Below are positions 24,068 through 57,743 of a stretch of 64,000 nucleotides of DNA, piece by piece. The notes beneath the pieces were generated by a model. That model searched no databases, was not told the origin of the DNA, and worked only from the letters and a program-made list of their open reading frames with translations. Within the stretch, counting starts at the first letter, position 1. Every line of letters starts with the position of its first letter. The translations under genes were made by a program, and so were the position numbers. The stretch lies in the IMG/VR virus record IMGVR_UViG_3300037067_021941, positions 1 to 64,000 of that record. One strand, 5' to 3'. The stretch is from a virus. Taxonomy: Duplodnaviria; Caudoviricetes.

Positions 24068-25666
24068 CTACAATTCAGATTCAGCTATAAAATGGTACGC
24101 ACACCACAAATCGGCAGTCGCTGCAGTTGAGCTAGTGTTATCACATCCTAAATAACCAATGCCCGATTCATTCACATAACTAGCAGTAACACCAGATCGA
24201 ACTGCTGCACCACTATTAACTGTTATTTGGTTAGTCCCAGCAGACGTTGGAGAATACAATGTTATAATGGGTGTTGTTCTTTTAGTTGTTGCAAATCTTG
24301 TAGAAGCGTTAAATAGTGAACCAGATGTTGATGCAGCAATCGTAGCCCAAGCAACAAAGAATGTTGCACCATTATAACTAATCGTATCTGGCGCAACATT
24401 TGTTCCATAACTCTTTTCATAATATCGTTGGCACAACTCTAATTCATCTGCTATTGGTCTTGGGCTTCTAACACGCGATCCACCAACATGGCAATCTACA
24501 TCAAATAAACCTATCGATTGGTTTTGAGTCAATGGCGATGCAGTCCAAAAGAAAACAATTAAATTGTTACATGTGCTACTTATGGTAGCTGATAAAGCTA
24601 TAGTATTTGCGGTCGAAGATCCTACAGCTGCAACTGTTATGCCGCTACTCAAAAAGAAATTATTTGCTGTGTATGATGCGTTAGTCCAATCTCTTACTAC
24701 ATCGCTTGTTACAGTATCCGCTACACCGGTCCATTCTAATATAGCACATCGCAAAACAGAGATGCTATCGTTATATGTTGATGCTTGTAGCGTTATAGTT
24801 TGTCCACGCAATGGGAAAGAATTACATCCCTCTACAATTTGCAATAATCCTATTCTTTGCGCTGTGGCGTTGATTTGTGTGACAGATCCACCAAAAGGAC
24901 CAGGTGAAGCTGATGTACCTGTGGTATAATTCCATCGCATAGTCTGTGATGGATTAGATTGGCTTAGTCCTATCCAGCGATCAAAACAATATGTATCATC
25001 GGTAGTGATATACCCTGTTGGGGTGTTATTATTGTTGCGTTGGAAGAAATCAAACCCACCATTAATTATAACATTTTCGCCCATCGTATCGCCACTCGGG
25101 CCTGTAGCTCCGGTAGCTCCCGATAAACCGGTACCAGTTGCACCGGTTGCTCCCAATCCAACAGGACCAGAAGCACCTATCCCAGAAGCACCGATAGGCC
25201 CTGTGGCTCCTGTGGCTCCTGTGGCTCCCGTAGGCCCTCCTGACGGTCCCGTAGCACCAGAAGCACCGATAGGCCCTGTGGCTCCTGTGGCTCCCGTAGG
25301 CCCTCCAGACGGTCCCGTAGCACCAGAAGCACCATTGATTCCCGAAACACCGGTGGAGCCAGTAGAGCCGTCAATTCCTGCGATGCCAGTAGCCCCAGAT
25401 GAACCAATGGGGCCAGTAGAGCCGGTGGCACCAGTGGGACCACCCAACGGACCAGTAGCCCCAGTTAAACCAGTAGCACCACTCGCTCCTGTTGAATCAG
25501 ACCCACTAGAAACTACCTGATCTACACCATCAGACGAACGACAATTTATAATTATAGAATTATTGACACCTTCCGTGAACCATTGATAAACAGTGTTTTC
25601 AGGTGGATTATCACCAAATGCCGGTGGAACTGTAAGCTGAATAGTTCTAAATTCTTTGAATTTCAT
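24068..25666 (-). CDS. Collagen-like tail fibre with C-terminal beta-sandwich (receptor-binding) domain
   Basis: GxT/GxS repeats, then [13 protein letters not shown]...DRW...[18 protein letters not shown] typical of phage fibre modules. Confidence 0.75.
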
Positions 25667-26487
25667 TATTCTTTATTTTCTAGTAACAACAGTCGTTCAG
25701 ACAGTTCTTGAATTGCCTTTATCATTGGCGCGATAAGTTCATCGTAACTGATTGTCAAAACATCACGCTCACCTATTATGTTGTGGTCCTGATAACCACC
25801 AAAATCAACACCAAGGTCGTCAATTGTTTGTTTCAATTCCTGTGCAATAAGTCCATGGTGAAAACGTGTTCGCTTTTTGCTACCATCTTTAGGCACTACA
25901 ACCTTTGTGCCGTCGCTAACAATAAAATAATCATCACGACAATCCCATTTGAAATCGACAGGATGCAAGGCAATAACAAAATCTAATCCTAATATAGTAT
26001 CTCTAATATCTGCTTTATCACGCATATCGGAAAGTGTCGCACCTGTTGCACCCGTTGCCCCTGTCGGTCCCGTCGCACCAGTCAACCCAACACCTGTCGC
26101 CCCTGTCGGTCCCGTCGCACCAGTAGCACCACCTGAACCGTTAGGACCAGTAGGACCAGTAGCACCAGTGGGTCCACCGCTAGGGCCAGTAGAACCAGCT
26201 GCACCGGTGGCACCAATTACACTAAGACCAATAGGACCAGTAGAACCAGTTGCGCCTATCGTGCCGCTACTAACACCAGAAGCACCGGTGATACCAGTAG
26301 CACCAGTGGCACCGTTTGAGACACCACCAGCGACAACCCTTTCGACACCATCAGAGTATCTATAATTAAGTGTTTGTGCACTTGTGCCGACATTAGTAAA
26401 CCATTCATAAACCGTATTTTCTGGCGGATTATCGCCAAATATCGGTGGAACTGTAAGCTGAATAGTTCTAAATTCTTTGAATTTCAT
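25666..26487 (-). CDS. Collagen-like fibre with Peptidase S74 intramolecular chaperone
   Basis: Collagen repeats followed by SDMRDK...GLDFV...HGLIAQE...IKAIQEL coiled coil. Confidence 0.85.
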
Positions 26488-26532
26488 AATAAATCAATCA
26501 TCCTAACGGTGCCTTGTATATATTATGTTTGG

Positions 26533-28800
26533 TTAACGAGAGGATACCATCCAATAAACATCACTTATAGTAACTATATCACCAGCGTTGTTGCTAGAAA
26601 TAAATAGTTCACAATAATCATCTTTCATTATAGTTTCTGAATATAACGTCAGCGAAAATGGATATGGCTGGTTAGATGTAGTGGTCCTTACAGTGAATGG
26701 GGCCAAGGCACTGCCAGTGCCGTTCTTCTTAACAGCGACATTAATATTCCTATTGCTCTGATTGACTGAAAGATTTCCAGTAATCCAGAATAGACCATCT
26801 TTGGCATGGTCGCTTAAATAAGTAATCTTGTTGTTGAGAACAGCTATTCTACATTCGAGATGATTTGGTATTACCATCACAGATGTAACAGTGCCCAGGC
26901 TAGAAACGTCAACAGATATAATCCCCCATCCTTCTCCACTAGTTGCGAATTCTATAGTAAAATCTTGAGAAGCAGTTATCACTACAACACTCACAGTGGT
27001 AACATTGCTTAATGCTTCTACAGCAGCTTTGATAGTCGCATCTGATGCATCATACGCTATACCAGTTGTGGTCTGCCCTGCTACTGTTATTGTGAAAGTA
27101 CCACTCGTCGCTACATCATTGAATGTAATATGCACTTTACTATTCAAACCATTAACTTTATAATAAGTACGTGCGGCTGTGCAAGTAGTGGTTGTAACGT
27201 TATCACTAATATTGATTTTAGAATGTGGTACATTATCTGGACAACCAGCATTTCCAATTATTTCTACATTTGCATCTCTACCAGAAGTCAATGAAAAATC
27301 AAATCCGCTAATAAAAGTTCCGATGTTATTGTAAGTACAGTTAAATATATCGTTGTAAGTACCAATGGCGTAACTTGATCCATCATATAATATAGCTGTA
27401 TCGCCAGAATCCTGTTCGAAAACAATATGTGCCAAATAAAAATTGCTAGTAGCACCAGAACCATTTTGAGCTAGACTAATACCAACAGAACAATTCTCAA
27501 AGTTTCCAACTTCGATATCTTGAACACTGACGATGCTGGCAGTTGTGTTATCAATCAATACACCAGTTCCACAATCTATTATACTGAAATTAAATAGATA
27601 AAGGTCAATACCTTTCAAGTCAGCTATTGCTATTTTAAAAGTATCAATAAATAAGTCAGTTATTTCTGAATAGATACTAGCGGTAGTATCAAATGTGACA
27701 AAATTCTCGTTAGCTGCGGTTCCGTAACTCGCTAGTGTCGATCCAGTAGCAGTGATTCTGTGTATATCGCAGTTGCTTTTAAGATTGAACATCGGCTTAC
27801 CGGTCAATCCAGTAGCCGCTTCAATAAAGCTCACTTCGGAGCCCAAACCAGCGATTTGTAATGAATATGTTGCATTGTTGACTATAACGGTATCAGCAAT
27901 TGGAAAGTGACCGCCATCAATAAGTATCTCTGTATCGCTCGACGCACTAGCGTTAAACCAATCGACAGCAGCCTTTACTGTTGTATAATTTCCGGTCGCA
28001 CCAACATAAATTCTATTAACTAGTCTCGATGGTCCTTCTGCACCAGTAGCACCACTAGCACCATCAATACCAGTTGCACCAGAAGCACCGGAAGCACCAT
28101 CAATTCCGGTAGCACCGATTGAACCGGACGCTCCTTGAACACCTGTTGCACCAGATGCACCAGACGCTCCATCAACACCTGTGGCACCCGTACCAGATGC
28201 TCCCTGAACGCCTGTAGCACCAGAAGCTCCACTAGCACCATCAATTCCGGTTGCACCAATGCCACTAGTACCCTGAACACCTGTTGCACCAGAAGCACCA
28301 GACGCTCCATCGATACCAGTAGCACCGATTGAACCAGACGCACCTTGAACTCCTGTCGCACCAGATGCACCAGATGCTCCGTCAATTCCGGTTGCACCAA
28401 TGCCACTAGCACCCTGAACACCTGTTGCACCAGAAGCACCAGACGCTCCATCGATACCAGTAGCACCGACCAATCCGTCAACGCCACTAGATCCAGCTAC
28501 ACCAGTAGCACCAATTAGGCCGGTAGCTCCATCAACACCACTAGCACCTGTTAATCCGATTTCGCCTGTGGCACCAGCAACACCCGTGGCACCTGTCGAG
28601 CCGATTGAGCCTGTGGCACCAGTAACACCAGTAGCACCAGTAGCACCGCTTATTATTGATTTTTCAGAGCCATCAGACAGACGAAAATGCACTAAAATGT
28701 TAGATCCATCAAAAGTATACCATTCATAGATATATCCTGTAGGCGGATTATCCCCAGGTGCGGTTGTAAGTTTAATTATGATTGCTTTTGTTACGTTCAT
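26533..28800 (-). CDS. Collagen-like fibre with beta-helix-like C-terminal domain
   Basis: About 200 aa Gly-X-Y, then [17 protein letters not shown] (pectin-lyase-like entry motif). Confidence 0.75.
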
Positions 28801-28809
28801 TTTTGATAC

Positions 28810-31800
28810 CTAAGCCACTTGGGTCAAAGTCACTATTAAACCAGGAATTTCTGGCCTGACCGGCCCGGTTCTCGCCGCAACTGACACAATTCGCACATAT
28901 GTATCCGGTGTACACCAATACAATTCTAAATAATCACCAGCAACCAACGGCATCACAAAATTCCAAGCCGGTACCAATGGAGAAGTCACTGCAGTACCAG
29001 TAATTACAATATCTGTGCAAGTCTGTGGTATATCGCTCCCATTTTTTCTAAGCCATATCGAAACTACATCAGTACCGGTCCCAGAAGTTCTGTAATATTG
29101 TGCTGAAAACTGTAAGTTGTATACGCCAGTATTGGCTACTGTTATTTGAGAGCCAGACACAATACTAACACCACTTGAACTATCAGTTGTATTTAACGTC
29201 ATCGCGACTGGGGTATTTATTGCGCCAGCAGTTTGTGTTGTTGTATCATAAAATGAACCATAGTATGGGCCAATGCTAGACGTACCACCAAAAACATATT
29301 TCCATGTCCCAACAATAGTATCATATGCAACCAAGTTAATCCTTATCTGATTGTTACCAAATGTGATATCAGTTGAATCTAACGTTAAATTGTTGCCATC
29401 ATTATCACTAATTGCGAATGGTAATGTTACGTTTCCTTTAGTGTGCGTGATTGTTAAAATCCCAGCAGTCAAGTCGGAATTTGTGAAAGTACCCGAAATA
29501 TAATTTCCGTCTACTCCGGTGGCACCAACTAGCCCGGTGGCACCAACTATTCCGGTTGCACCAACAGGTCCTGAAGCACCACCAGTTTCACCCTGTGGAC
29601 CAGTTGCACCCGTTGGTGCCAATACAGTTAACGTTGTGTCGACATACGAAGCTCTCGAAGTCCCTTGATAAATCATACTAATATTACGTGTCAGGGCTGC
29701 TGTAGTATATCCAAGAGCTCTGACAATTATCCTGTCGGTCGTAAGAATCGCAATATCACTCAAAACAGTGTAATCCATTTCGACAGCTGTAGCAACACCG
29801 GCACTCCTAGCAGCAATCTCTGTTGTTGAATTTGTTATGAATAATTGTGTAGTTGTTCCGTCTAACGCTCGTTTAAGAACTTGATATTTAGCATAACAAA
29901 GAGTGCCACTTGCCCAGAAAGTCCCAACAAATTTCCATAGACCTGCTGTGATTTTCGCTTGACCAGGGATATCTAAATCCGTTATGCAAATTATGAATGG
30001 TATACCATCTGAGTCTTCGTCTGACGCAGCAGTTAGTGTTTGTGTTAATTCGCTACCAGTCGGTGGTGCTGCATTTAACCTACTACCATGTACAGTCAAC
30101 ACAGATGACGATGTTTCATTGGTTAAATTGTTCTCAGTTATACCACATAGAGTTAAAGTGAGTGCTGCTACAGTATGAATTGATACTGTTTTGTTGTTAT
30201 TGACCGTGCCAGTAATATCAGCTATTTGCCATTGTTGCCACCCATCAGAGATAAAACTACCAGATGCACGAGTGATTGTTCTAGTCGCAGCAACATATGT
30301 CAATGTATCGGTTGTAGATGGTGTCGAGAACGATTCGCCACCAGACGCATCAAACCAAAAACGCATCCCTGTAGTCGGGCCTTGAATACCTGTTGCACCA
30401 GTTAAACCCGTAGCACCAGATACGCCGGTGGCACCAGTTAGACCAATACCAGTAGCGCCTGAAGCCCCATCAACACCGGTCGCACCAGAAGCGCCAGACG
30501 CTCCATCAATTCCGGTTGCACCAATTGAACCAGAAGCACCTTGCACACCAGTTGCACCAGAAGCACCAGACGCTCCATCAATTCCGGTTGCACCAGCTAA
30601 ACCAGTCGCACCAGTAGATCCTGTGAAACCTGAGGCTCCTTGCACACCTGTAGCACCCGACGCACCATTAACACCAGATGCACCAATAACAATGGGACCT
30701 GTGGATCCAATTTCACCGGTAGGACCGGTAGATCCGGTCACACCAGTAGCACCAGTAGCTCCTGTCGAACCAGTGGCCCCAGGCAAGCCTACAGGGCCAG
30801 TGGTTCCTGTTGAACCTGTTGAACCTGTTGAACCGGTAATACCTATCGCGCCCGTAGAGCCAGTAAAACCAGTAGCCCCAACAACGCCAGTAGAGCCAGT
30901 AGCGCCAGTCAAGCCAATCAAGCCGGTTGCCCCTTGGCGTCCTCTATATCCAGTTGCACCCGTTGAACCCGTAGCACCAATTAAACCAATAGTGCCTGTT
31001 GCACCAGTTGAACCTGTAGCACCAGATAGACCAATTACACCAGTAGAGCCCATAGGCCCTGTCGCTCCTGTCGCGCCTGTCGAGCCCGTAGAACCAGATA
31101 AGCCGATAGAACCAGTTGAACCAGATAAGCCTGTCGCTCCTGTCGAGCCCGTTGAACCAGTAGCACCAGATAGACCAATTACACCAGTAGAGCCTATAAG
31201 CCCTGTCGCTCCTGTTAAACCTGTTGAACCTGTTGAGCCAGATAAACCAATTAATCCAGTAGCTCCAGCTAATCCTGTAGAACCAGATAAGCCTACTAGC
31301 CCAGTAGCCCCAGTTAAACCTGTGGAGCCAGATAAACCAGTTGCTCCCGTTAAACCAATTGAACCAGATAAACCGGTAGCACCTGTTAAGCCTGTTACCC
31401 CGGATGAACCAGTAGAACCAGTCGCCCCCGTTAAGCCTGTTACACCAGGTAAACCAATAACGCCTGTTGCCCCTGTTGAACCAATATGTCCTGTTGCACC
31501 TGCAGATCCAGTTAAACCAGTCGCTCCTGTAGCACCGGTCGAGCCAGTAGCTCCAACTAATCCCGTTGCACCTGCTAAACCGGTAGAGCCAGATATGCCT
31601 GTTGCACCTGCAGACCCAGTTAAACCAGTCGCTCCTGTAGAACCGGTCGAGCCAGTAGCTCCAACTAATCCTGTTGCACCTGTTAAGCCGACAGAACCAG
31701 ATATACCTGTTGCACCCGTAGCACCGCTTGAACCTGTAGCACCAGTAAATCCAACCACACCAGTAGAGCCAGTCAACCCAGTAGCACCGGTGGCACCAGT

Positions 31801-32685
31801 AGAACCTGTAGCACCAGTTAAACCAATCAAACCAGTAGAACCTTGACGCCCTCTATATCCAGTGGCACCGACTGGTCCTGTTGCACCTGTTGAACCAACA
31901 ATTCCTGTTGCACCTGTCGCACCTTCTATGCCGGTTTGTCCGATAGGACCGGTAGTACCAGTATGGCCAGTAGCACCAGTTACACCCGTTGCACCAGATA
32001 AACCAACTAATCCGGTTGATCCTGTTAAACCAACAATACCAGAAGCGCCGGAAGCACCAGTTGCACCAGAAATGCCAGTGAGGCCAGTTGCACCAGAAAT
32101 GCCTATTACGCCTGTCGCACCAATTTGACCAGTAGCTCCAATATTACCGGTAACACCACTAGCCCCGGTGCTACCAGCATATCCTATAACACCAGTACTA
32201 CCTCCAACACCTGTCGCGCCAATTTGGCCAGTAGCACCATCTATACCAGTAGAGCCTTTAAAACCCGTTGCACCAGTAGAACCAGTAATACCAATTAACC
32301 CAGTCGCACCAGAAGCACCAGTAATGCCAGAAACACCCGAAACCCCAGTACTGCCTGTAGCACCAGTAGCTCCTGCAGCACCAGATAAACCGACAACCCC
32401 TGTAGCACCAGTTGGGCCAATCGAACCGGTCGCTCCATCAGATCCCGTTGCGCCTGATGCGCCCATGATACCAGTTGCACCAGATGCACCATAAATGCCG
32501 GAAGCGCCAACAATAATATTGTTGATCTGCTCTTGTAATGGTGCAGTTGCACCAGCTAAACACGAAAGTTCTTGCGGACTTATTCCATCAATATTATGAT
32601 TGTTTAAATCCAGTGAAGCATTTAACTTTGGGGCAGGATCAAGCGCCAAGCGTGGTACTAAATTGGCGGACAAATTATCTGCCAT
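28810..32685 (-). CDS. Giant collagen-like fibre protein (1291 aa) with C-terminal C1q/BclA-like domain
   Basis: About 700 aa GAT/GST repeats; C-terminal YGSFYD...[16 protein letters not shown]...[11 protein letters not shown]. Confidence 0.8.
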
Positions 32686-41045: not shown

Positions 41046-42116
41046 TCAAGATGCCGATGCAGCAATAAGACACCCTTCTGCTACAGCAAATAATGGGTCT
41101 TTACATCTCTTCACTTTATTGACTTCAAAAGGCATCTTCTCTTCTTTAAATAGTTGTGATACCATCTCTTCAAAACCGGCTGGACATGATGTTCCACCAG
41201 CCATGAATACGTCAATGGGCTTATCTATACGAGCATTTGTTTCGTTATCAATAAACCCTTGCACAATGCCACGTATTACGTTTTGAATCAAAATGCGATA
41301 ATGTAAAATAATATCAAGTTCAAGTCGTGTTGTGTAAGCCTGCGTCAAATCGATTTTCTCTTTCATCCTGCATACTGTAGTCGGCGTCTCTGCCGATTTC
41401 TTACGCAGTACTTCAGTGTCATATCCATGCCGCTTTGCGACTTCGGTATCAATCCAATCGCCAGCACCAACCCAGCTAAATGAATAAATCTCATTTCCCC
41501 AAAGAACATAACTGACAGTGACAGTGCCAGCACCCCAAGAAATACCGATACCAGTAGCATCAGGTGTCTCTTTAAGCACTAATGCATGCGATTCTTTTAT
41601 GGAAGAAGTTTTAATACTCGATATGGTTTGATACCCAGAAATAATCAAATTTAAAACTTGCTGATGGTAATCAATGTTACTCGGTCGATTCAACGCTTTA
41701 GCTGTAGTACAATAACATAGTTTGATTTCCGGTTCAAACTCACCAGCATCATGTTCAGCCATAGATAGCAAACCCTGCACAATGCTAGATAACACCATAA
41801 GAGCCGCTTCATCAGGGGCTACACCACCCTCAGCCATTGGACGCAGTAATGTGTCATTATGTGCGTAAGCTAATTCTTCCGCGTCCTTGCCCAACACATA
41901 AATGCCGTCCTGGTTATCCAGGCGAATCCATTTTGCTGGCCGCTTAGTCCCATCAGACCGCATTTTATTTGGGTCATCAAGCATATTCTCTATGAATTTG
42001 CTTGGACGAGGAATCAAATAGTAACCATTGATTTCCCTGAGAAACACCGTTTTCTTATTGTGATAGAACGAAACAACTATGTTTTTCGTCCCAATGTCGA
42101 TACCAATCGCATTCAT
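41046..42116 (-). CDS. Actin/Hsp70-superfamily ATPase (ParM/MreB-like)
   Basis: IGIDIGT (phosphate 1), ISWGAGT (phosphate 2), MAGGTS (adenosine), DPLFAVAEG; start revised to MNAIG after AGGAG. Confidence 0.8.
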   Translation of the reverse strand: MNAIGIDIGTKNIVVSFYHNKKTVFLREINGYYLIPRPSKFIENMLDDPNKMRSDGTKRPAKWIRLDNQDGIYVLGKDAEELAYAHNDTLLRPMAEGGVAPDEAALMVLSSIVQGLLSMAEHDAGEFEPEIKLCYCTTAKALNRPSNIDYHQQVLNLIISGYQTISSIKTSSIKESHALVLKETPDATGIGISWGAGTVTVSYVLWGNEIYSFSWVGAGDWIDTEVAKRHGYDTEVLRKKSAETPTTVCRMKEKIDLTQAYTTRLELDIILHYRILIQNVIRGIVQGFIDNETNARIDKPIDVFMAGGTSCPAGFEEMVSQLFKEEKMPFEVNKVKRCKDPLFAVAEGCLIAASAS

Positions 42117-42189
42117 AGTTACTCTCCTGATTGTGCAATCGTCACCCAATCCAAATACTAAAGATGATTGCTCTAATTCTTCGTCAGTA

Positions 42190-42519
42190 TCATCTTTCAC
42201 GTCTTGTGACAACTTTTGTTCCGAATCCACCTTTTGGGATTGGCGGTCGTCCAATGGAGGGGGCGAGAAGTTCTGGGGAAATATCTGGCGCGTTGAAAAA
42301 TGGAGTGGCCATGGGCTGCTGGGGGGCATTAACAACTCGCGTTGTAATTCCTTGCTCTCCGGAATATGATCCGGTGGTAGCTTGCGTAATCGGTTTTTCC
42401 ACGTTGCGATTAACAAGTGTATTCCTTATAAATTCTCTCAACACCACCAACACGAGTCCAAATGACACTAAAGAAATTATTAAGGCTACAATCGCGATTG
42501 CTAACGCTATTATGTCCAT
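42190..42519 (-). CDS. Single-pass membrane protein with Pro-rich tail
   Basis: N-terminal hydrophobic helix. Confidence 0.6.
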   Translation of the reverse strand: MDIIALAIAIVALIISLVSFGLVLVVLREFIRNTLVNRNVEKPITQATTGSYSGEQGITTRVVNAPQQPMATPFFNAPDISPELLAPSIGRPPIPKGGFGTKVVTRRER

Positions 42520-42524
42520 AATAA

Positions 42525-44030
42525 TTACTCTGACAGCTCGGTATTCTTTATGCCGCCCATGTACTCATACCGCAACAAAGAAATATTCCATTTCTTTAAC
42601 GACTCCAATAACATATCATATCCCCTGTTAATGCGATTGATGTAATTTTCAGTATCTTTGTTGTCAGGCCAATATTTTCCCTTATTATATTGTGGAACTA
42701 ATGTGGTGTGGCTACGACCATCTGGAGAAAGCTTCGCATCACAACCAAATAAAGAGATTGATTTTGCACCGAGAAATGCAGCTATGTGTATGGCCGTGTG
42801 GACTGTCGAAGCATGATGAAAGAATGGCTGATCTTTATTATTGAGACAAGAATTGCTATCTTGCGGCCCTAAATCAAAAGTTATACAATCAGAAAATTTT
42901 GCTGATGGTTCTATAGACGTTTTACCAGCACCAATTTTCAGTTTCTTTGGTATAAGTAGTTGACTCGAAAGATAACGCTTAGCATCGATTACAGCTTCTG
43001 CCGGTTTTAAATCATGGAACACAACATAATCACAATTGAATATCAAGGAGTTGTAATTCACACCAATCACAATATCGAAATCATCTAATATACCGTTCGT
43101 AACATGATCTAACGATGGACCAGCACCTAATATAGCAATGCGTGCGTTTGCGTGCTTATTTTTCAATAATTCTATTCCATGTAAATCTGGTAAGAAATTA
43201 TCTAAAAACCATTGAAAAGGTCTTTTTTGAATTCGATCACGTATAGCGATTCGTTCTGAAATATCCCCAAATTTAATATCTCCCGGCTTCTTCCTGATAG
43301 ATTGATAAAATAACTTTTTATAATCATCAAACCAAACTTCCGCTATTCTTGCTTTATTTGCTTCTAGCGTGGTCGTATCGAATTCATAATTAAACTTGTT
43401 TTTGAACCAGTGTGCAACCACAGAATCACGAACTATCTCAACAGTTCCACCAGCTAACCATGTCCGAAGTGAAAATTCGATATTTTCACATCCCCATTTA
43501 TACATCCCAGTATCAAAACCGCCAATCTCGTTCCACCATTGTTTGGTAAATGCAAAACAATGACCGGCTAAAGCTGGTGTCATATCAGATCCATCATCTG
43601 ATATCCAATTAAAATCAAGATTCCAGCGCCAACCAGTTTTGGCATAAGCCGATGTTGTTTCCATCCAAGTAGGTGCATCAAGCCCTCTTGTAAGCGGTAC
43701 AGCGACACAGTTATATCGCTCTCCTAAGCGTTTAACAATAGGTAATAGCCAATCAGATGCCACTTTAATGTGTGGGTCCATTGATACTATCACAGGAGAT
43801 TTCACAGCTTCGGCAGCAATATTCCGTGATCTAATTAGTCCTTCTCGCATATTATTTCGAATAATTCTAACTTTAGGTCTATCTATCACAATAGGAATTT
43901 TACTACAATCGTCAACTATGATAAATTCATCAATGAGGCCCGGCATCGTTTTTTCTATGATTGTATCTATTGTTTTCTCGATATATTCCTCGTTTAGTGC
44001 AGACATAATAATTGTCGCTGTCAGCATCAA
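42525..44030 (-). CDS. Polypeptide GalNAc-transferase-like (GT27-like GT-A) domain fused to DUF115/Maf-like domain
   Basis: VDDCS, REGLIRSR, DPH, TPALAG, FDTGM.KWGCENIEFSLRTWLAGG, NKARIAEVWFDDYK, FGDISER, FQWFLDN..PDL; C-terminal IAILGAGPSL...IGVN...LGAKSISLFGCD. Confidence 0.8.
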   Translation of the reverse strand: MMLTATIIMSALNEEYIEKTIDTIIEKTMPGLIDEFIIVDDCSKIPIVIDRPKVRIIRNNMREGLIRSRNIAAEAVKSPVIVSMDPHIKVASDWLLPIVKRLGERYNCVAVPLTRGLDAPTWMETTSAYAKTGWRWNLDFNWISDDGSDMTPALAGHCFAFTKQWWNEIGGFDTGMYKWGCENIEFSLRTWLAGGTVEIVRDSVVAHWFKNKFNYEFDTTTLEANKARIAEVWFDDYKKLFYQSIRKKPGDIKFGDISERIAIRDRIQKRPFQWFLDNFLPDLHGIELLKNKHANARIAILGAGPSLDHVTNGILDDFDIVIGVNYNSLIFNCDYVVFHDLKPAEAVIDAKRYLSSQLLIPKKLKIGAGKTSIEPSAKFSDCITFDLGPQDSNSCLNNKDQPFFHHASTVHTAIHIAAFLGAKSISLFGCDAKLSPDGRSHTTLVPQYNKGKYWPDNKDTENYINRINRGYDMLLESLKKWNISLLRYEYMGGIKNTELSE

Positions 44031-44036
44031 TATCTC

Positions 44037-44678
44037 CTAAATGCAAAGTGTTGTATGGCCAACATTTTCAAATTGAATACCCCGTTTTTTCAATTCATTA
44101 ATTACCGCACTCATTACTGTGCGTTGGCTATCAGAAATAGTTCCAGGCTTCGATGTATGGTAAAAATAATGCTTACCAATACTATTAAATCCACAGCCGT
44201 ATAATACGATCTTAGTTGCGCCCATAACATAAGCTAGTTGTACAGCACAGCAACTTATTGTGCCACCAAACATCAAATAATTCATGTCCGGTTTAAGTCT
44301 GTCTGATTTATACCATTTATACATAAAAGTTAAATGTGGCTCTATGGGTAATGGTAAGACGATATTATTTTGCTTCGCAGTAACAACCGCTGCCCGCGTT
44401 ATGGTTGGAAACAAAACATCTGGATACAAGATTTTATCTGGTGCAGCAGTTAATTTAGCTATGACTCTAATTTTTGAACAGTCAATACTAAACCAATCAT
44501 ATGTCGATGATCTAACATCACCACATATAAAATAGTCGAACTTCTTACCTAATTTAGCAGCACCATTAACACCTATTGAAATATCACACTTACTCTTGAT
44601 AAATTCGACCGCTGTTGGCCCAGAACCAACTATAGCAATCGTGGCACCCTTGTGAATGTTGTGAAGCGATTTAATCAT
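44037..44678 (-). CDS. DUF115/Maf-like (sialyltransferase-like fold) protein
   Basis: LHNIHKG.TIAIVGSGPT, IGVN, AVQLAYVMGATKIVLYGC.F...HYFY. Confidence 0.7.
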   Translation of the reverse strand: MIKSLHNIHKGATIAIVGSGPTAVEFIKSKCDISIGVNGAAKLGKKFDYFICGDVRSSTYDWFSIDCSKIRVIAKLTAAPDKILYPDVLFPTITRAAVVTAKQNNIVLPLPIEPHLTFMYKWYKSDRLKPDMNYLMFGGTISCCAVQLAYVMGATKIVLYGCGFNSIGKHYFYHTSKPGTISDSQRTVMSAVINELKKRGIQFENVGHTTLCI

Positions 44679-44696
44679 ATCTCTAAGAATACAGCG

Positions 44697-47480
44697 CTAT
44701 GCACACGCAATAATGATATCCGCACCACTACCATCAGGTACTGATCCATTTCGCGAATCTTTAGTTATACTTCCAATCGATATAAAAGTACCAGACGGTA
44801 TAGTCATGCCATTAACAGTTATATTACCTGTACCAATGTTATATATTGTGACATTAGTCGTAGTTGGATCGCCACTGTCGCATCCAGATGCACCTACCGC
44901 GCTAAACCTATTATACCAAAATTGGAAAGTATTGCCAGTACTATATGAACCAGTTATTATCTCTGGTGGAACAACGCCAGCACATCCAACGTGCGCATCA
45001 GTATTCAGTGTAAGACCACCAGTGCTCGAATTGCCATAATAACACACAGCAGTACCACATTTGCCATACAAATCAAAATCAGTATTCGTAGACCAATTTA
45101 GCTCGGCTGTAATGGTATAAGCGCAAGCACCCGTAGCACCCGTAGCACCCGTAGCACCTGTGGCACCTGTGGCACCCGTAGCACCCGTAGCACCCGTAGC
45201 ACCCGTAGCACCTGTGGCACCCGTAGCACCCGTAGCACCCGTAGCACCCGTAGCACCCGTAGCACCCGTAGCACCCGTAGCACCTGGGCGACATCTAGTA
45301 TACGCAATCCAGCCGTTACCATATTGTGATATCGGTGTACTACTATCCGGTTCCGGACAATAACAGCCAGTAGTACATGGATTTATGATTTTAGTCCAAC
45401 TTCCACCACCAGGAGACATATACCATTCACAATTGCCTGGGCATATTAGTACTCCTGTGGCACCCGTAGCTCCCGTAGCACCTGTGGCACCTGTGGCACC
45501 CGTAGCTCCCGTGGCACCTGTGGCACCCGTAGCTCCCGTGGCACCTGTGGCACCTGTGGCACCTGTGGCACCCGTAGCACCCGTAGCTCCTGTGGCACCT
45601 GTGGCTCCTGTGGCACCTGTGGCACCTGTGGCTCCTGTGGCACCCGTAGCTCCTGGTCGAGTAGTTGCACCAATAGCACAAGCCAATACAGAATAGCCTA
45701 AACAACTAATAACACCACCCAAATTGATATCAATACTAAATTGTAATGCAACACCACTCACGCCAGAATATGAGAATGATAGTGATGAACCAATAACGGA
45801 ATATTTCTTACCACCAGTTATTGTACTGTTGTTAGTACATGCTGCAGACCATGATACCGAACATGAATTAGCATCTGGATAGTCTGGACATGACTCGCTG
45901 CTAATTGATTTTGCTTCTTCACAGATCGAATTAAATTGTGTACTAAATGTAATTGTTGCTGTTGTAGAACCACTTTCCGTGTTTGGTACGTTAACAGTTA
46001 CATCGTAATGCTGTAATGTGCCGTCAACTACACAATCGAAACCTTGACATGATGGATTTGCAGACGAATCAGCACCGTATGGTAAATTTATTTCTAGATT
46101 AGTATCAAGATAACTAGGACAATCACATGGGCAACATAATTCCGTAACTGGCGGCATAATTGGCTCAATAACCAACACTGGACAACTACCAGTAATATCA
46201 TTTACGTTCGAACAAAAGAAAAAATCTTCCTGACAACATCGTTGGCCTGGAAATTGAGGCTCAATAATTGGCCATGGGTAACGTGTATCTCTGTTAGTAG
46301 TGGAATTTGCTTGTCTCCAAGCTACTATAGATGCTGGCGTAAAATCTTTCCAACTGAACTGATTAGATTGATGCTGCGTCCAGCACGCCTCTATTGGTGT
46401 CCATTCAACAAACTGCAATTCAGGTATCGTAAATTGTTTTTCTGCAAATTGAAATCGCGCAATGCCTTTACAATTATCAGTAGTAGTCCGCACAGATGCA
46501 AATGACAAGTCATTAACCGTTTTAAGAATAGTCGTGTTTGTCGTAGTGCAAACATGTGAAATTGCCAACTTTGATACACAGTTATTTAGAAATAAAGAAT
46601 CGGAAAAGAAATAAACGCTCGATTTCAAGCTACTAAAACGCAATGAAATGATTGCTTTGGTAGCTTCAACTGCATCATCTATTAAATTACTTTCTATTAC
46701 TTCAAAAAAGCCACTACCGTCTATACCTTGTGGCCCCTTCCGACCAATTTCATTGGCTTTGTAGTACCAATTGTCATCAGACCATTCATTAGATATTAAT
46801 TCACCAGACAGTTTCGATGTAGTACGATCATAATTTAGGAATGAATCAATATTAACATCAAATTCTGAGTAAATTATTATAAAAGGATCACCATTAATCG
46901 GCTGTGAAATAGTCAGCGAGCTTTTAATAGAATTATTCTTAAATAGTCGTAGTGATATCGGCGTATCGATCGTAGAAGTAACGGTCGCATCAATTGTTAG
47001 TCTAGTCCCATTTATTGTTGCAAGATATTTCTGTTCGGCAGCTCCTGCCGTACCATCAGCTCCTTTATTTCCTTGTTCACCAGTCTTACCTCGTTCCCCT
47101 GGACATTTTAACTGCGATAATAGTGATAGTAACCGTGGTCTGCTTACTTCTATTCTTAAATCATTTGCTGATTCTGGTTCGAACGTGATAGTATGGTTAG
47201 AAGATTGAAATAAATAATAATATCCTGCTACATGTGGATATATTTTAAGAAAATCAAAAGTAAGCCCACCCTGAACGGCATCTGATATAGCGTTTATACG
47301 TGTGGTGATACCTGGTGAAACCAATCCATCATTAGTCTCGGTAACAACAGGTATTGATTTATATACACCGATACAAGACCATGTGTTTAATTTACTATCA
47401 TATTGCCACTGATCGCCGTTACCATCTAACACGATAGTGCCATCTGCAATATCAGTACTGTTTAACGCATGACAATTCAA
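44697..47480 (-). CDS. Cys-rich collagen-containing virion/fibre protein
   Basis: 927 aa; short Gly-X-Y blocks, Cys clusters, pure (GAT)22 and (GAT)17 arrays. Confidence 0.7.
45132..45284 (-). repeat. 9-bp tandem repeat encoding (Gly-Ala-Thr)17
   Basis: gcacccgta/gcacctgtg units. Confidence 0.9.
45456..45653 (-). repeat. 9-bp tandem repeat encoding (Gly-Ala-Thr)22
   Basis: gcacctgtg/gctcccgta-type units. Confidence 0.9.
47001..47352. repeat. 352-bp direct repeat, copy 1 (copy 2 at 49120-49471)
   Basis: No mismatch found comparing the two copies by eye. Confidence 0.9.
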
Positions 47481-47490
47481 CGCTTACTCC

Positions 47491-49599
47491 CTATGACGGC
47501 GATGGTGATGGCGATGGTGATGGCGACAATACTGTTGATGGTGGCGACAATGACAACGAAGGCGATGGCGACGGCGATAACACCGATGGTAAAGGTGAAA
47601 GTGAAGGCGATAATGCTGATGCCGATGGTGAAGGCGACAAACTAAGCGAGGGTGACAATGATGGTGATAACGACAATGAAGGCGACAATGACGGTTCTAT
47701 CTCTAAGGGTGCCTCTACAGCCCCTGTTGTTCCTGTATCAGCCGAAGTTGCGCTAGTCGTATTTACAGTAATAGTTAATTTATAACCAAGACAACAATCA
47801 AGCTTTAATGTATTGATTTCTGCACTCGTAATAATCGTACCAGACGAGCCATTAAAATAAAATGATATGGTTCCAATACCCGATAGATGCTGAGAATTGT
47901 CGCCAGATTGCCTAGTCATTGTTGACGTTTGTGCCGACTGGTCTGTAACCATCCAACTAATCGGGCAATTCTGCTTAGAAACTGCTTCTCGTGGATCAAA
48001 CGAAAATCCAGGTATTGTGTCTGTTTGTGAATTGTATAAATCCCTCGACTCATCACAAAGAGAATCATACTCTAGTTTCCAAACGACTGATGTTACTGTT
48101 GATGATTCAGTCGACACATTAATAGCGATATTATAATAATGAGATTCGCCGTTGATGCTGCAAACGGCAGCTTGTACCGATGTGCTGTTAATGTCGATCA
48201 CATTTACATCTTCAAATTTATATCCACCCTCAAGTAAGAATGATATCGGACAATCGCAATCACATCCATAAGATGACGACAATGGCGTCTGCAAGTCATC
48301 AATTATACAAACGGGACAAGAGCCAGTTACGTCATTTACATTCGAACAAAAGAAAAAATCTTCCTGGCAACACAATTGTCCCGGATTGGATTCTTCAATT
48401 ATGGACCACGGATAGTCTGGATTAGCGGCAGTGTTATCATTTGCCTTCTGCCATGGCATCATACTAGAGCCGACTTTTGTAAAATCCATCCACGATAATT
48501 TAGTGGCAGCCATATGCCTCTGCCGCAAACACGTGCTCGTAGGTGTCCATTCACTAAAAATAAGATTTGGTATATCTGCTGTTATCTCTGTAAGACTATA
48601 CCTAACTATATTCTTACAGCTATCAGTAATAGTCTGTAAAGCCGCATATGAGTTAGTGAGAGATGTAGTTGTAGTTGAGCATATATGACCGACAGCAAGC
48701 TTAGATACACAATTTGTTTTAAATAATTCAGTACTGAAATAGTTGATTAGACCAACACCATCACCCTGTCTCAATAATATTATGGCTTTGCTTGATATTA
48801 AATCATCACCAACGGTATCTGATACAATTTCTAAAAAATTGCTACCATCGATTCCGGTAGGACCCTTTCTACCCATTTGCAAAGCTTTATAGTACCAAGA
48901 CGTTGCCCCCCATTGAGAACTTGTAATTTGACCGGCCAATCGACCTGCAGAATAATCAAAAAACGTAGAATCAGAATCTATTACAACATCAGATTGTATT
49001 ATTTCAAATTCAGAGTTGATAATTTCAATCGTAATCGTTGAAGTAATGGAATTGCCAGAAAAAACTCTTAATGATATTGGAGTACCCAATGAATTGTCAA
49101 CAAGAACATTTATCTGTAATCTAGTCCCATTTATTGTTGCAAGATATTTCTGTTCGGCAGCTCCTGCCGTACCATCAGCTCCTTTATTTCCTTGTTCACC
49201 AGTCTTACCTCGTTCCCCTGGACATTTTAACTGCGATAATAGTGATAGTAACCGTGGTCTGCTTACTTCTATTCTTAAATCATTTGCTGATTCTGGTTCG
49301 AACGTGATAGTATGGTTAGAAGATTGAAATAAATAATAATATCCTGCTACATGTGGATATATTTTAAGAAAATCAAAAGTAAGCCCACCCTGAACGGCAT
49401 CTGATATAGCGTTTATACGTGTGGTGATACCTGGTGAAACCAATCCATCATTAGTCTCGGTAACAACAGGTGAACTACCAATAGTCCCAACATTTATCCA
49501 CGAATTTGTTTGTCTGTCATATTGCCATATTGTACCATATGTATCGCACACTTCCATACCATCAGTAGCTGTCTTCGGCAGATGTGCAATATTAGCCAT
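47491..49599 (-). CDS. Paralogous Cys-rich collagen-containing protein with Ser-Pro-rich tail
   Basis: Shares blocks with 44697-47480 (e.g. [14 protein letters not shown]); C-terminal SPSLSPSPS repeats. Confidence 0.7.
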   Translation of the reverse strand: MANIAHLPKTATDGMEVCDTYGTIWQYDRQTNSWINVGTIGSSPVVTETNDGLVSPGITTRINAISDAVQGGLTFDFLKIYPHVAGYYYLFQSSNHTITFEPESANDLRIEVSRPRLLSLLSQLKCPGERGKTGEQGNKGADGTAGAAEQKYLATINGTRLQINVLVDNSLGTPISLRVFSGNSITSTITIEIINSEFEIIQSDVVIDSDSTFFDYSAGRLAGQITSSQWGATSWYYKALQMGRKGPTGIDGSNFLEIVSDTVGDDLISSKAIILLRQGDGVGLINYFSTELFKTNCVSKLAVGHICSTTTTSLTNSYAALQTITDSCKNIVRYSLTEITADIPNLIFSEWTPTSTCLRQRHMAATKLSWMDFTKVGSSMMPWQKANDNTAANPDYPWSIIEESNPGQLCCQEDFFFCSNVNDVTGSCPVCIIDDLQTPLSSSYGCDCDCPISFLLEGGYKFEDVNVIDINSTSVQAAVCSINGESHYYNIAINVSTESSTVTSVVWKLEYDSLCDESRDLYNSQTDTIPGFSFDPREAVSKQNCPISWMVTDQSAQTSTMTRQSGDNSQHLSGIGTISFYFNGSSGTIITSAEINTLKLDCCLGYKLTITVNTTSATSADTGTTGAVEAPLEIEPSLSPSLSLSPSLSPSLSLSPSPSASALSPSLSPLPSVLSPSPSPSLSLSPPSTVLSPSPSPSPSPS
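49120..49471. repeat. 352-bp direct repeat, copy 2
   Basis: Identical to 47001-47352. Confidence 0.9.
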
Positions 49600-49604
49600 A
49601 TATT

Positions 49605-49808
49605 TTAATCATCTGATGATATTGCATCCAGTAATTCACCTGGATCATAATCTACCAACGGAACGGCATGATCCGTACTGTCTTCGTTTTCTGATTCTGT
49701 GGCACAACGCACACACAAAACCGTATCTGGAACAGCCTTTAAACGCTCCTTAGGTATCTTTCGCCCGCACTGTTCACAGATAATAATAATTTGTTCTATT
49801 TTTTCCAT
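49605..49808 (-). CDS. DksA/TraR-type C4 zinc-finger protein
   Basis: CEQCGRKIPKERLKAVP...LCVRCA..E; GGAGG RBS. Confidence 0.8.
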   Translation of the reverse strand: MEKIEQIIIICEQCGRKIPKERLKAVPDTVLCVRCATESENEDSTDHAVPLVDYDPGELLDAISSDD

Positions 49809-49862
49809 TTCGCATTACCTCCTAATACATACTTACATTTACACATAAGAAAATATAAATAC

Positions 49863-50474
49863 ATGGATACCATCAGGTTTGAACGCAAACTATTCGAATC
49901 TCTACTAAACGAGTCTATGACGACCGATGGAATAATCTACTCTATCAATAAACAACGTAAGTCAAGACAATTGAATCAATTAAGCCACAATACTAAGATA
50001 GATATCGCTGCAAAAATTCAAGCAAAACAAATGGCGTCTACAGGCGAGTTTGGACATGTTCTAAGAGGAGCAAAATATCCAACACTGGCAGATAGAATGA
50101 GAGTAACTGAATATGCTTATTCTAATGCTGGCGAGGTATTATATTCAGGAATAGATGATACAGAGACAGTAGTACAGTCTTGGCTGAATTCCAAACCCCA
50201 TCGCGAAGCAATATTGCACCCTGATGTCGAGGAGATTGGTATATCTGTACAATATTCCCAAAAAGGAAGACCATATGTCTGTGCGGTGGTGTGCATTCCA
50301 ATTGGAAAGAAATCAGATACAATTGAAGATATAGGCGACGAAATTTTAGAAGTCGTAAAAAGGTACGGGAAAACTGCTGGTAAGAAATTACTTATCAAAA
50401 TAGCTAAATCTGACTATATGAAAGAGATAATCAAATCTCCAATAATTCAAAAGATTATAGCAATATTAAGATAA
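49863..50474 (+). CDS. CAP (SCP/PR-1) domain protein
   Basis: INKQR, AA..QAKQMA...H, GEVL, VVQSWLNSKPHREAIL, EIGI. Confidence 0.8.
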   Translation: MDTIRFERKLFESLLNESMTTDGIIYSINKQRKSRQLNQLSHNTKIDIAAKIQAKQMASTGEFGHVLRGAKYPTLADRMRVTEYAYSNAGEVLYSGIDDTETVVQSWLNSKPHREAILHPDVEEIGISVQYSQKGRPYVCAVVCIPIGKKSDTIEDIGDEILEVVKRYGKTAGKKLLIKIAKSDYMKEIIKSPIIQKIIAILR

Positions 50475-55805: not shown

Positions 55806-56013
55806 CGAGCCAACGCTTACATTTCGAACGTTATACCTAGGTAAGATTACTATTCCAGCATCAATCATTGTAAAATGGACCGAACGTTTAGATGTGACTG
55901 ACAGGCTAGAGCATTGTGCGGAGATCACGTTAAGAGATGGTACGTTTTTAATCGCTACCGACAGAATGACGCACAATGCGCGAAAAAACAAGAAAAATTG
56001 GCATCACTGTTAG
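55792..56013 (+). CDS. Hypothetical protein
   Basis: Small ORF overlapping the sbcD stop. Confidence 0.4.
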
Positions 56014-57743
56014 TTCTTCTTTTTGCTCGGTTTCTTAATAACATTCTTTTCCGCCACAACTGGCGCGTACTTGCGGAAGCATAATAAATTATTCGTAAAC
56101 CATCTCATAAAATAACCATCGAAGCAATATTCTAGACATTTGTTTTGCAGATCCAACTCATGAATAAGTCCTAAATTCTTAAATTTATCACACCAATATT
56201 GCTTGGGACGACAATTGATATGCCCAACTCCACCTTGCCCAGGTTGTGCTGCAGTCCAAATAAGAATGCCGTTAGGTGAGAGACAATCGTAAATTTGTTT
56301 TGCGATCTGATCAGAATATTGTGGGTCAATGTGCTCCGCAACTTCTAAACAGACGACCAATGGTTTTTGATACTTACCATTTAACCTCAAAAGGTCCTCA
56401 ACAAACAAATTTTCTTCATTATCGATACGTGGATCAATATCAATACCTATGCAATTGACGCCGATATCAGTCATCGCATAGGTATAAGTTCCGGGACCAC
56501 ATCCGATATCAATGACATCATTCGGGTTAATGACCTCTTTAATCCAAGTAGCCAACCGATTTGCGAACGGCCTCTCTTCTAAAGCTACCTGCTCGTAATC
56601 GATCTGCTCTTTTGTGATAACCGGATATATTTTTTTATTGAAGCCTAATTCGGTGCGATTTGGTTTCGGCTCATACCAGCCCTGCTTACCGTGAATGTCG
56701 AGAACAGATTCGAAGAATTCTTCGTACATCCCTGCAACTCGTTCCATTGAGAAGTTGTTTAACGCCCACTCGCGACAGATGTGTGGGTTGATTTTATGAA
56801 TATTTTTGGCAGCCCAAACAAACTGTTCAAACGTATGGCAGCGATAGCCTGTTATGCCGTGTAGATTATTCTCAGTGAAGGCACCCCAGTCTGTTGTGAT
56901 AGTCGGTGTTCCAGAGAACAAGCTTTCAATTTGAACACCGCCAAAAGGTTCATTATATTGACTGGCTAAGATCAAACCCTTTGCGCGTGCCATTAATTTC
57001 TTACGCTTATCGATATCAGCATAGCCGACAAATTCAACATGTCCATCATCAGCAAGCTTATATTCTTCATCTCTCTGCCCCGCTACCACAAGTTTAGCTC
57101 CAATAGCTTTCGTTACTTGTTCCGCGATATGAATCCCCTTACCAACATAAACGCGACCACAGAATAGGAAATAGTCATCTTTTTCAGCTGAAAATTCAAA
57201 TTCATCTGGATTAAAGTAATTCGGAATGACGACGTCATACCAATTCTGCATACAAGTACCGACAGATTGTAATCCGTAAAAAGCGTGATATATAGCATAC
57301 GACTCGAAAATCTTGTACTTTGCCCAATGGCCACCAGCATATCCAATACCTGGCTCAACGCAAATCAGATCAGGATGAGCATCACAAATCGGCCTATGCC
57401 CGGAGCCCCAAAAGGGCAAAATGAAATCGTTTTTCTGTTTTCTGATACCGATTTCTGCTATCGCATTTCTATTGAATGTTGTATAAGCGTGGTCATTTGT
57501 GTCGAATTTAAAGAAATGCTTGCGCCAATCATGATCGCCGTAAGCTTTTTTCCAATCTTCGTTTGTTAAAACCGGCACATGTTCTGAGCACTGTAAGTCT
57601 GAATCTTCATGGCCATAGTGGATGACGGTATGTCCGCGATCGGTCATCATTTTGGCAAATTTGACGACTTTCTGCGTATATGCACAGGCAACAAACTCTT
57701 TGGATGAGACTGTATGTTGGAGTCCCATTATATGAAAACGCAT
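56010..57743 (-). CDS. GT4 glycosyltransferase fused to SAM methyltransferase
   Basis: GR...[25 protein letters not shown]; then [25 protein letters not shown]. Confidence 0.85.

Follow-up and report, generated by a model that had tools for sequence, protein, structure and literature searches.

Can a virus of prokaryotes encode a polypeptide N-acetylgalactosaminyltransferase (GalNAc-T), an enzyme of the glycosyltransferase (GT) family GT27 that is treated as eukaryotic and Golgi-bound, and which proteins would such an enzyme modify? The question is raised by positions 42525-49599 of the DNA analysed here, the first 64 kb of the 93-kb IMG/VR virus record IMGVR_UViG_3300037067_021941 (CheckV completeness 26%), referred to below as the window. 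The initial annotation of this locus had suggested that the phage starts and caps O-glycans on its own collagen fibres. We found that the N-terminal domain of the P0001 protein is a GT27 catalytic domain with an intact active site, fused to a Maf-like second domain, and that two Ser/Thr-rich proteins, P0003 and P0004, are encoded upstream on the same strand. Our proposal is that P0001, with the help of P0002, probably attaches O-glycans to the P0003 and P0004 linkers while the proteins are still in the host cytoplasm, ahead of their probable use as exposed fibres.

The four genes of the module (P0004, P0003, P0002 and P0001) are co-directional on the minus strand with a spacing of 6-18 bp. The enzymes and their domains are as follows.

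42525-44030, minus strand: P0001, 501 amino acids (aa), the GT27-Maf fusion
43167-44030, minus strand: P0001 residues 1-288, GT27 (ppGalNAc-T-like) catalytic domain of the GT-A fold (phmmer, Foldseek, VIA, conserved residues)
42555-43166, minus strand: P0001 residues 289-492, C-terminal Maf/DUF115-like (sialyltransferase-like) domain, GAGPS motif at residue 302, conserved D431 and H441 (AF2 model, VIA, PF01973)
44037-44678, minus strand: P0002, 213 aa, paralog of the Maf-like domain encoded as a separate gene (Pfam MptE-like, E 9e-6; hhalign)

The source genome is a huge phage of a prokaryote, in agreement with the phage origin assumed initially. The window, where nearly all genes lie on the minus strand, encodes a DnaE-type polymerase with HNH and intein interruptions, a helicase and a recombinase resembling DnaB and UvsX, respectively, and collagen-like proteins with tail-fibre PHROG matches, and two close relatives have genomes of 364-388 kb, 99-100% complete; the replication genes, the tail-fibre matches and the large relatives together identify the source. 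The module sits among the replication genes (helicase, DnaE, recombinase).

GT27 catalytic domain of P0001

The seven GT27 motifs reported earlier for the P0001 N-terminus were all located by regular expression and in the same order: REGLIR at 62, DPH at 85, TPALAG at 151, WGxENxExSxRxWxxGG at 179, NxxRxAEVWxDxYK at 225, FGDISER at 254 and FQWFLDN at 272. The phmmer search against PDB sequences detected eukaryotic GT27 chains as the best 16 matches, all covering residues 4-290 (E 7e-47 to 1e-29). Human GalNAc-T2 (T2) was the top match (E 7e-47), and the GT27 matches included human T12, T4, T10 and T7, mouse T1, fly PGANT9 and Toxoplasma T3, while the first glycosyltransferase from outside GT27 was found merely at E 9e-4. 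The GT27 similarity of P0001 is far beyond chance, so the enzyme is GT27-like, as predicted, and not an ordinary bacterial GT2.

The fold comparison with GalNAc-T2 proposed in the initial annotation gave the same answer. The AlphaFold model of full-length P0001, built with 35 homologs, had a predicted local distance difference test score (pLDDT) of 93 and a predicted template modelling score (pTM) of 0.89, and the top 50 Foldseek matches were GT27 structures exclusively (GalNAc-T2: E 1e-27, root-mean-square deviation (rmsd) 1.9 A, 304 columns). VIA, an independent all-against-all aligner, gave GT27 Z-scores of 34.4 (8v9q, mouse GalNAc-T1) and 32.4 (8uhv, Toxoplasma GalNAc-T3; PMC11074326), compared with 20.1 for the best other GT-A fold.

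P0001 was put onto the human T2 numbering by HMMER alignment, and residue conservation was taken from an 80-sequence alignment. The residues D176, R201, R208, D224, H226, W331, E334, N335, E337, H359, N380 and R383 (T2 numbering) are kept in the clade of the window protein (the near clade) and likewise in stand-alone short forms and in the basal P0068 lineage. The Mn2+ ligands D85 and H87 of the DxH motif and the C-terminal H207 are invariant in these three groups, as are the aromatic residues F140, W142, F209 and Y215, corresponding to T2 Phe280, Trp282, Phe361 and Tyr367, which in T2 line the peptide groove. The Gal/GalNAc-T motif reads W179-G-C-E-N-I-E, with Cys in the third position, where 10 of the 14 near-clade members have Gly. 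The flexible loop, with 18 residues, is short by eukaryotic standards but within their range; 16 of 45 eukaryotic sequences have a loop of this length. P0001 thus has in common with eukaryotic GT27s (human GalNAc-T2, mouse T1, Toxoplasma GalNAc-T3) the GT-A catalytic domain (31-42% identity, rmsd about 2 A), the metal site formed by DxH and the C-terminal His, the WGGENxE motif, the flexible loop and the four groove aromatics.

Three donor-pocket changes, I253T, G309H and L310C in T2 numbering (Thr114, His157 and Cys158 of P0001), are invariant in the phage near clade; eukaryotic GT27s have Ile/Val, Gly and Leu/Ile at these positions. T2 Ile253 and Leu310 pack against the N-acetyl group of GalNAc. 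The invariant changes suggest a different sugar specificity, and the donor of the GT27 domain may therefore differ from UDP-GalNAc; they concern donor specificity and not GT27 membership. One possible donor is UDP-GlcNAc, used by some GT60 polypeptide alpha-GlcNAc-transferases (Dictyostelium, Trypanosoma cruzi) on Ser/Thr-rich mucin-like proteins; GT60, the sister family of GT27, shares its DxH variant and likewise acts on Ser/Thr of polypeptides (PMC7185993). Judged from the very strong GT27 scores, GT27 is the nearer family to P0001.

No signal peptide, membrane anchor or stem was detected in P0001, where the catalytic domain begins at residue 4, so the protein must act in the host cytoplasm. 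Unlike eukaryotic GT27s, the phage-encoded, cytoplasmic P0001 is devoid of the type II anchor and stem and of the ricin-type lectin (Pfam Ricin_B was not matched), which are common but not universal in the family, has a Maf-like enzyme domain in the lectin position, carries the Thr/His/Cys pocket for Ile253/Gly309/Leu310 and belongs to a separate clade.

Maf-like second domain and P0002

P0001 residues 289-495 match Pfam MptE-like/DUF115 (PF01973) at 28-29 bits, below the gathering cutoff of 34.6, and PF01973 matches 20 of 41 family members at E <1e-3. The C-terminal domain had no match by sequence in the PDB, and fold searches with the whole model were dominated by GT-A matches, so the domain was modelled separately (AF2 pLDDT 95.9). 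VIA detected the Maf flagellin glycosyltransferase 5mu5 at Z 12.8 (rmsd 3.5 A, 171 residues), the archaeal MptE kinase at Z 11.7, bacterial and mammalian sialyltransferases at Z 8.1-9.4 and unrelated folds at Z <5; the best Foldseek match was ST6GALNAC2, at a marginal E 1.4e-3. The replacement of the lectin domain by a DUF115/Maf-like domain, as described in the initial annotation, is therefore borne out by the Ricin_B search and by the 5mu5 match. The nearly equal Z-scores of the MptE kinase and Maf leave the chemistry unfixed by fold alone.

The best fold match, Maf (PF01973/DUF115; M. magneticum 5mu5, G. kaustophilus, C. botulinum), shares with P0001 the GxGPS nucleotide-binding start and is a cytoplasmic enzyme of Ser/Thr O-glycosylation acting on a surface-filament protein. 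P0001 differs from Maf in having only the central domain of about 210 aa, with no flanking flagellin-binding domains, no flagellin and a sub-threshold Pfam score. The conserved residues D308, D319, D431 and H441 are candidate catalytic residues of the domain; in M. magneticum Maf, the acidic residues 324 and 415 are critical by mutagenesis.

The second Maf-like gene reported next to the fusion gene is P0002, a paralog of the C-terminal domain (hhalign probability 98%, E 2.5e-13), and a P0002-like gene is directly upstream of the fusion gene in the related loci L002-L010.

Maf enzymes that have been characterised attach nonulosonic acids or Kdo to flagellin Ser/Thr directly, in the cytoplasm (bioRxiv 10.1101/2020.06.03.131540). 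GT27 and Maf are both directed to protein Ser/Thr, so both halves of P0001 have protein-directed relatives. Capping with nonulosonic acid, as proposed initially, is not supported, and the characterised Maf enzymes modify Ser/Thr directly instead of capping. We did not detect NeuB in five related phage genomes, and the CMP-sugar synthetase family gene (CTP_transf_3) is present in one of the five; phage-encoded nonulosonic-acid synthesis was rejected on these grounds, and sialic-acid-like capping stays speculative.

Ser/Thr-rich linkers, gene neighbourhood and descent

The (GAT)22 and (GAT)17 repeats and the Ser-Pro tail noted upstream of the enzyme are present on the same strand, the two repeats in P0003 and the tail in P0004.

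44697-47480, minus strand: P0003, 927 aa, candidate acceptor made up of a Cys-rich core that carries short collagen segments, two linker slots and a beta-rich domain at the C-terminus (translation, Pfam Collagen, ortholog alignment)
45456-45653, minus strand: P0003 linker slot 1, (GAT)22, residues 610-675 (9-nt tandem repeats)
45132-45284, minus strand: P0003 linker slot 2, (GAT)17, residues 733-783 (9-nt tandem repeats)
47491-49599, minus strand: P0004, 702 aa, P0003 paralog (49% identity over about 620 aa); candidate acceptor
47494-47739, minus strand: P0004 Ser/Pro/Leu-rich C-terminal tail, 82 aa with 30 Ser, 20 Pro and 14 Leu (composition)

The P0003 orthologs align across the Cys-rich core of about 605 aa, then across a small Cys-rich domain and then across the C-terminal domain; between these lie the two slots, unalignable among orthologs and Ser/Thr-rich in every one of them. 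The window phage has (GAT)n in both slots. The slots are occupied by Thr/Pro-rich or TTTSGP repeats in L003, L004 and L008, and by a GAT run followed by Pro-rich sequence and by SPSPSP repeats in L007 and L009. Among orthologs, slot 1 holds PTS (Pro/Thr/Ser) or Pro-rich repeats and slot 2 holds SP-rich, TTTSGP or TTQAPP repeats, and the orthologs of P0004 have longer SPSxS tails or poly-Thr runs at the tail position. The low-complexity segments of orthologs, including TTTSGP repeats, poly-Thr/PAPTTT and SPSxS runs, contain 24-38 Ser/Thr per 60 aa. In L002-L009 the core homologs (proteins with the P0003/P0004 core) have the highest Ser/Thr density among all open reading frames, 20-38 per 60 aa versus at most 18 for the others.

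As judged from these alignments, the conserved property is a hypervariable Ser/Thr-rich spacer and not collagen as such. Collagen as the glycosylated feature, the initial suggestion, was consequently abandoned: orthologs put PTS mucin-like repeats in the same slots, and (GAT)n is one variant. In Bacillus anthracis BclA, Gly-x-Thr collagen repeats on a surface filament are O-glycosylated at Thr by unrelated enzymes; unlike BclA, the phage family has the collagen repeat as one among several interchangeable linker types. As a separate observation, a 300-nt stretch (46998-47297 in P0003 and 49117-49416 in P0004) is 100% identical between the two genes, whose proteins are otherwise 49% identical, suggesting recent gene conversion.

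The GT27-Maf family was found solely on huge-phage contigs of up to 388 kb. The word-indexed search detected the same fusion in about 50 clusters, at identities as low as 46% and on contigs of up to 370 kb, and additionally stand-alone GT27 forms of about 280 aa with no Maf domain. The exhaustive HMMER search detected 5,139 homologs, including a broader set of 455-490-aa fusions at 28-36% identity. There was no match among 50,697 GenBank phage records (tblastn), and no close relative in 185,579 GTDB species genomes by a pattern-based scan that detects close relatives only. In one of the loci (L011, 8931-10840) a stand-alone 282-aa GT27 directly follows genes for UDP-galactopyranose mutase (E 1e-75) and a DUF3431 protein, which suggests that a glycan of that phage contains galactofuranose.

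Seven IMG/VR loci at 82-85% identity have the order P0004-like, P0003-like, P0002-like, fusion and Volactin-type actin, the first four genes being conserved in this order across L003-L009. A core homolog is directly upstream of the GT27 gene also in L002 (53% identity, E 2e-109), in the marine far-clade locus L012 (about 31%, E 2e-33) and in L014 of the basal P0068 lineage (E 1e-125), so that the adjacency persists from 85% to about 31% identity while the flanking genes change. In the reverse test, an IMG/VR search with the core-protein alignment, the fusion was just downstream in 13 of 17 viral loci; the four unpaired loci have the most divergent core homologs. The proposed tie between the enzyme and Ser/Thr-rich proteins is thus conserved across divergent phage lineages. 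L010 keeps the fusion with no core homolog within 6.5 kb, and extra GT2 or GT1 genes are inserted inside the module in relatives.

The Volactin-family actin homolog (PF25216, E 2e-42; window 41046-42416, minus strand; L012 12134-13258; L015 2940-4316) lies one or two genes downstream of the fusion in the near and far phage clades, its true start being probably an internal Met near residue 101. GT, actin and DnaE form a deeply conserved block. A gene of the CAP/cysteine-rich secretory protein family (E 1e-13) is located just upstream of the module on the opposite strand (49791-50474, plus) and at the equivalent relative place in the P0036 and P0068 loci. The promoter/terminator scan was uninformative.

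In a 172-sequence tree of catalytic domains, all 59 phage-type sequences were split from all 113 eukaryote-type sequences with a branch support of 97. In a second tree, computed under a mixture model with two distant GT2 sequences as outgroups, the support was 93 for the eukaryote clade (members include Chromera, Vitrella, Porospora, Alphamonas, Lapot, Anopheles and Clunio), 99 for far phage and 86 for near phage, and 33 for the branching order of the three. The identity to alveolate GT27 catalytic domains reaches 38-42%, and the family itself spans 28-85% identity within one conserved phage gene order (DnaE, HNH endonucleases, PHROG matches). Recent capture from a particular eukaryote was rejected, since phage and eukaryotic GT27s form separate supported clades.

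The far clade (P0075 and relatives; L012, L026-L030 and L032) has lost DxH, His359 and Trp331 in the GT27-like half and kept the Maf-like half well. Its N-terminal half may be a non-catalytic peptide-binding partner, a possible pseudo-glycosyltransferase, as far as the residue pattern indicates. This loss does not apply to the window clade.

Candidate function, alternatives and significance

In our proposal, P0001 serves the huge phage as a protein O-glycosyltransferase that is soluble, cytoplasmic and two-headed. The GT27 domain would use Mn2+ and a host UDP-sugar to place an alpha-linked sugar on Ser/Thr hydroxyls of disordered Ser/Thr-rich linkers, the first sugar being most likely an N-acetylhexosamine (HexNAc), not necessarily GalNAc. 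The Maf-like domain and P0002 would add a second kind of sugar, either onto the first one or directly onto other Ser/Thr residues; if they behave like Maf or sialyltransferases, their donor would be CMP-activated, possible examples being host Kdo and a nonulosonic acid. The preferred acceptors would be the upstream-encoded P0003 and P0004, where the linkers between folded domains are hypervariable yet always Ser/Thr-rich. The glycans would stiffen and hydrate the linkers, protect them from proteases and potentially provide a glycan coat for exposed phage fibres. The initial idea of a phage that O-glycosylates its own fibres is retained in part: the pairing of GT27 with Ser/Thr-rich proteins speaks for it, UDP-GalNAc as the donor is doubtful from the three pocket changes, and we infer both the glycosylation and the virion location.

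Several points weigh against this proposal. The support is computational throughout. P0003 and P0004 have no recognisable virion-protein domain except the collagen repeats and are encoded among replication genes, and the ESM Atlas search with the P0004 core returned only weak collagen/tail-fibre look-alikes (scores 0.83-0.86; pLDDT of the Atlas's own model 0.33). The pairing with core proteins is missing in 4 of the 17 core-protein loci and in L010 and L011. The (GAT)n repeats are without the Pro context favoured by eukaryotic GalNAc-Ts, the three donor-pocket residues depart from all eukaryotic GT27s, and NeuB was not detected in the five related phage genomes. Finally, the metal ligands are lost in the GT27-like half of the far clade, so the module must work differently there.

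P0001 might instead be a protein O-glycosyltransferase with other main targets (the three collagen-like proteins of tail-fibre type at 24068-32685, proteins of the capsid or tail, or those of the host), its adjacency to P0003 and P0004 being inherited gene order. Eukaryotic GT27s have broad specificity, the phage encodes several further collagen-like proteins (Gly-x-Thr/Ser) that match tail-fibre PHROGs, the Ser/Thr density of P0006 in the window is close to that of P0004, and L010 retains the fusion with no core homolog nearby; however, the core/GT27 adjacency withstands the change of neighbours over the whole identity range and all orthologs have Ser/Thr-rich linker slots, and we consider such other targets unlikely. 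A different division of labour, in which Ser/Thr glycosylation is really the task of the Maf-like domains and the GT27 half, catalytically minor or silent, mainly binds or presents the peptide, would fit the far clade with its degenerate GT27-like half and conserved Maf-like half, and the direct Ser/Thr glycosylation by Maf enzymes (bioRxiv 10.1101/2020.06.03.131540). It is improbable for the window clade, where every catalytic residue is invariant, as it is in the basal P0068 lineage and in the stand-alone 280-aa forms, which have no Maf domain at all.

The acceptor could also be something other than protein, as in DNA base hypermodification or in polysaccharide or lipid-linked glycan synthesis. 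The location of the gene among helicase, DnaE and recombinase genes and the presence of at least four more GT genes in the window are compatible with this, and DNA hypermodification by phage GTs has precedents (Pyle et al. 2024, as cited in PMC12619734). We give such acceptors a low probability, since the residues of the T2 peptide groove are invariant, both fused domains have protein-directed relatives, a membrane anchor for lipid-linked synthesis is missing and the conserved neighbour is a Ser/Thr-rich protein. The 38-42% identity to alveolate catalytic domains could point to a GalNAc-T captured recently from a eukaryote and possibly without function, or to a mis-assembled eukaryotic or giant-virus contig; the supported split of 59 phage-type and 113 eukaryote-type sequences (97; eukaryote clade 93 with the outgroup), the phage gene order conserved over 28-85% identity and the two relatives that are 99-100% complete at 364-388 kb make this explanation highly implausible.

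Phage self-glycosylation of structural proteins is already known from mycobacteriophages, where phage GTs modify Ser/Thr-rich terminal segments of their own structural proteins in the host cytoplasm and the glycans have a shielding effect (Freeman et al. 2023, as summarised in PMC12619734). According to that summary, the known case concerns siphoviruses of about 60 kb and the C-termini of capsid and tail-tube proteins and was shown experimentally; here, we infer modification of inter-domain linkers of a Cys-rich, collagen-bearing protein of a 360-kb huge phage. New here are the enzyme family, whose characterised members have so far all been eukaryotic, its fusion to a Maf-like domain, the phage group and the candidate mucin-like linker targets. 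To our knowledge, the virion glycosyltransferases of mycobacteriophages are neither GT27 nor Maf. We found no description or analysis of a phage GT27 in the literature, only bulk CAZy-table mentions, including GT27 in viromes; the JGI pipeline already labels some homologs "polypeptide N-acetylgalactosaminyltransferase".

P0001 stands in a well-populated clade of phage enzymes that have a complete GT27 active site and are naturally soluble, cytoplasmic and fused to a second, putative Ser/Thr-directed GT. The proposed activity would add an enzyme family, a phage group and a type of target, the hypervariable mucin-like linkers, to those known for phage self-glycosylation. A GT27 that folds in the bacterial cytoplasm, without disulfide-dependent Golgi folding, would be an attractive tool for the production of mucin-type glycoproteins in E. 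coli, and the deep non-eukaryotic branch makes the origin of mucin-type O-glycosylation testable. A bolder hypothesis, which we regard as unlikely, is that huge phages carry an old and diverse true GT27 lineage, sister or even ancestral to the eukaryotic initiators, and virion mucin-like glycoproteins with HexNAc and an acidic sugar; if true, the machinery of mucin-type O-glycosylation would have a viral or prokaryotic history and would not be a eukaryotic invention.

Additional glycosyltransferase genes were detected in the window, all on the minus strand (4473-5450, 5458-7287, 56010-57743 and 57784-59385). They encode a Glyco_trans_1_2 protein, a protein of 609 aa whose two GT2-type domains include Glyco_transf_7C, a fusion of GT1 and methyltransferase (phrog_3408, E 8e-173) and a GT2; counting the module studied here, the window holds at least six GT genes. 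A 396-aa protein (13545-14735, minus strand) has a borderline match to family-A DNA polymerase (34.1 bits, cutoff 34.3), the main replicase being DnaE. The region 24068-32685 (minus strand) encodes three more collagen-like proteins of 532, 755 and 1291 aa, Gly-x-Thr/Ser-rich and with tail-fibre PHROG matches, and the gene for the 1291-aa protein lifts the local GC content to 0.51, compared with about 0.40 elsewhere.

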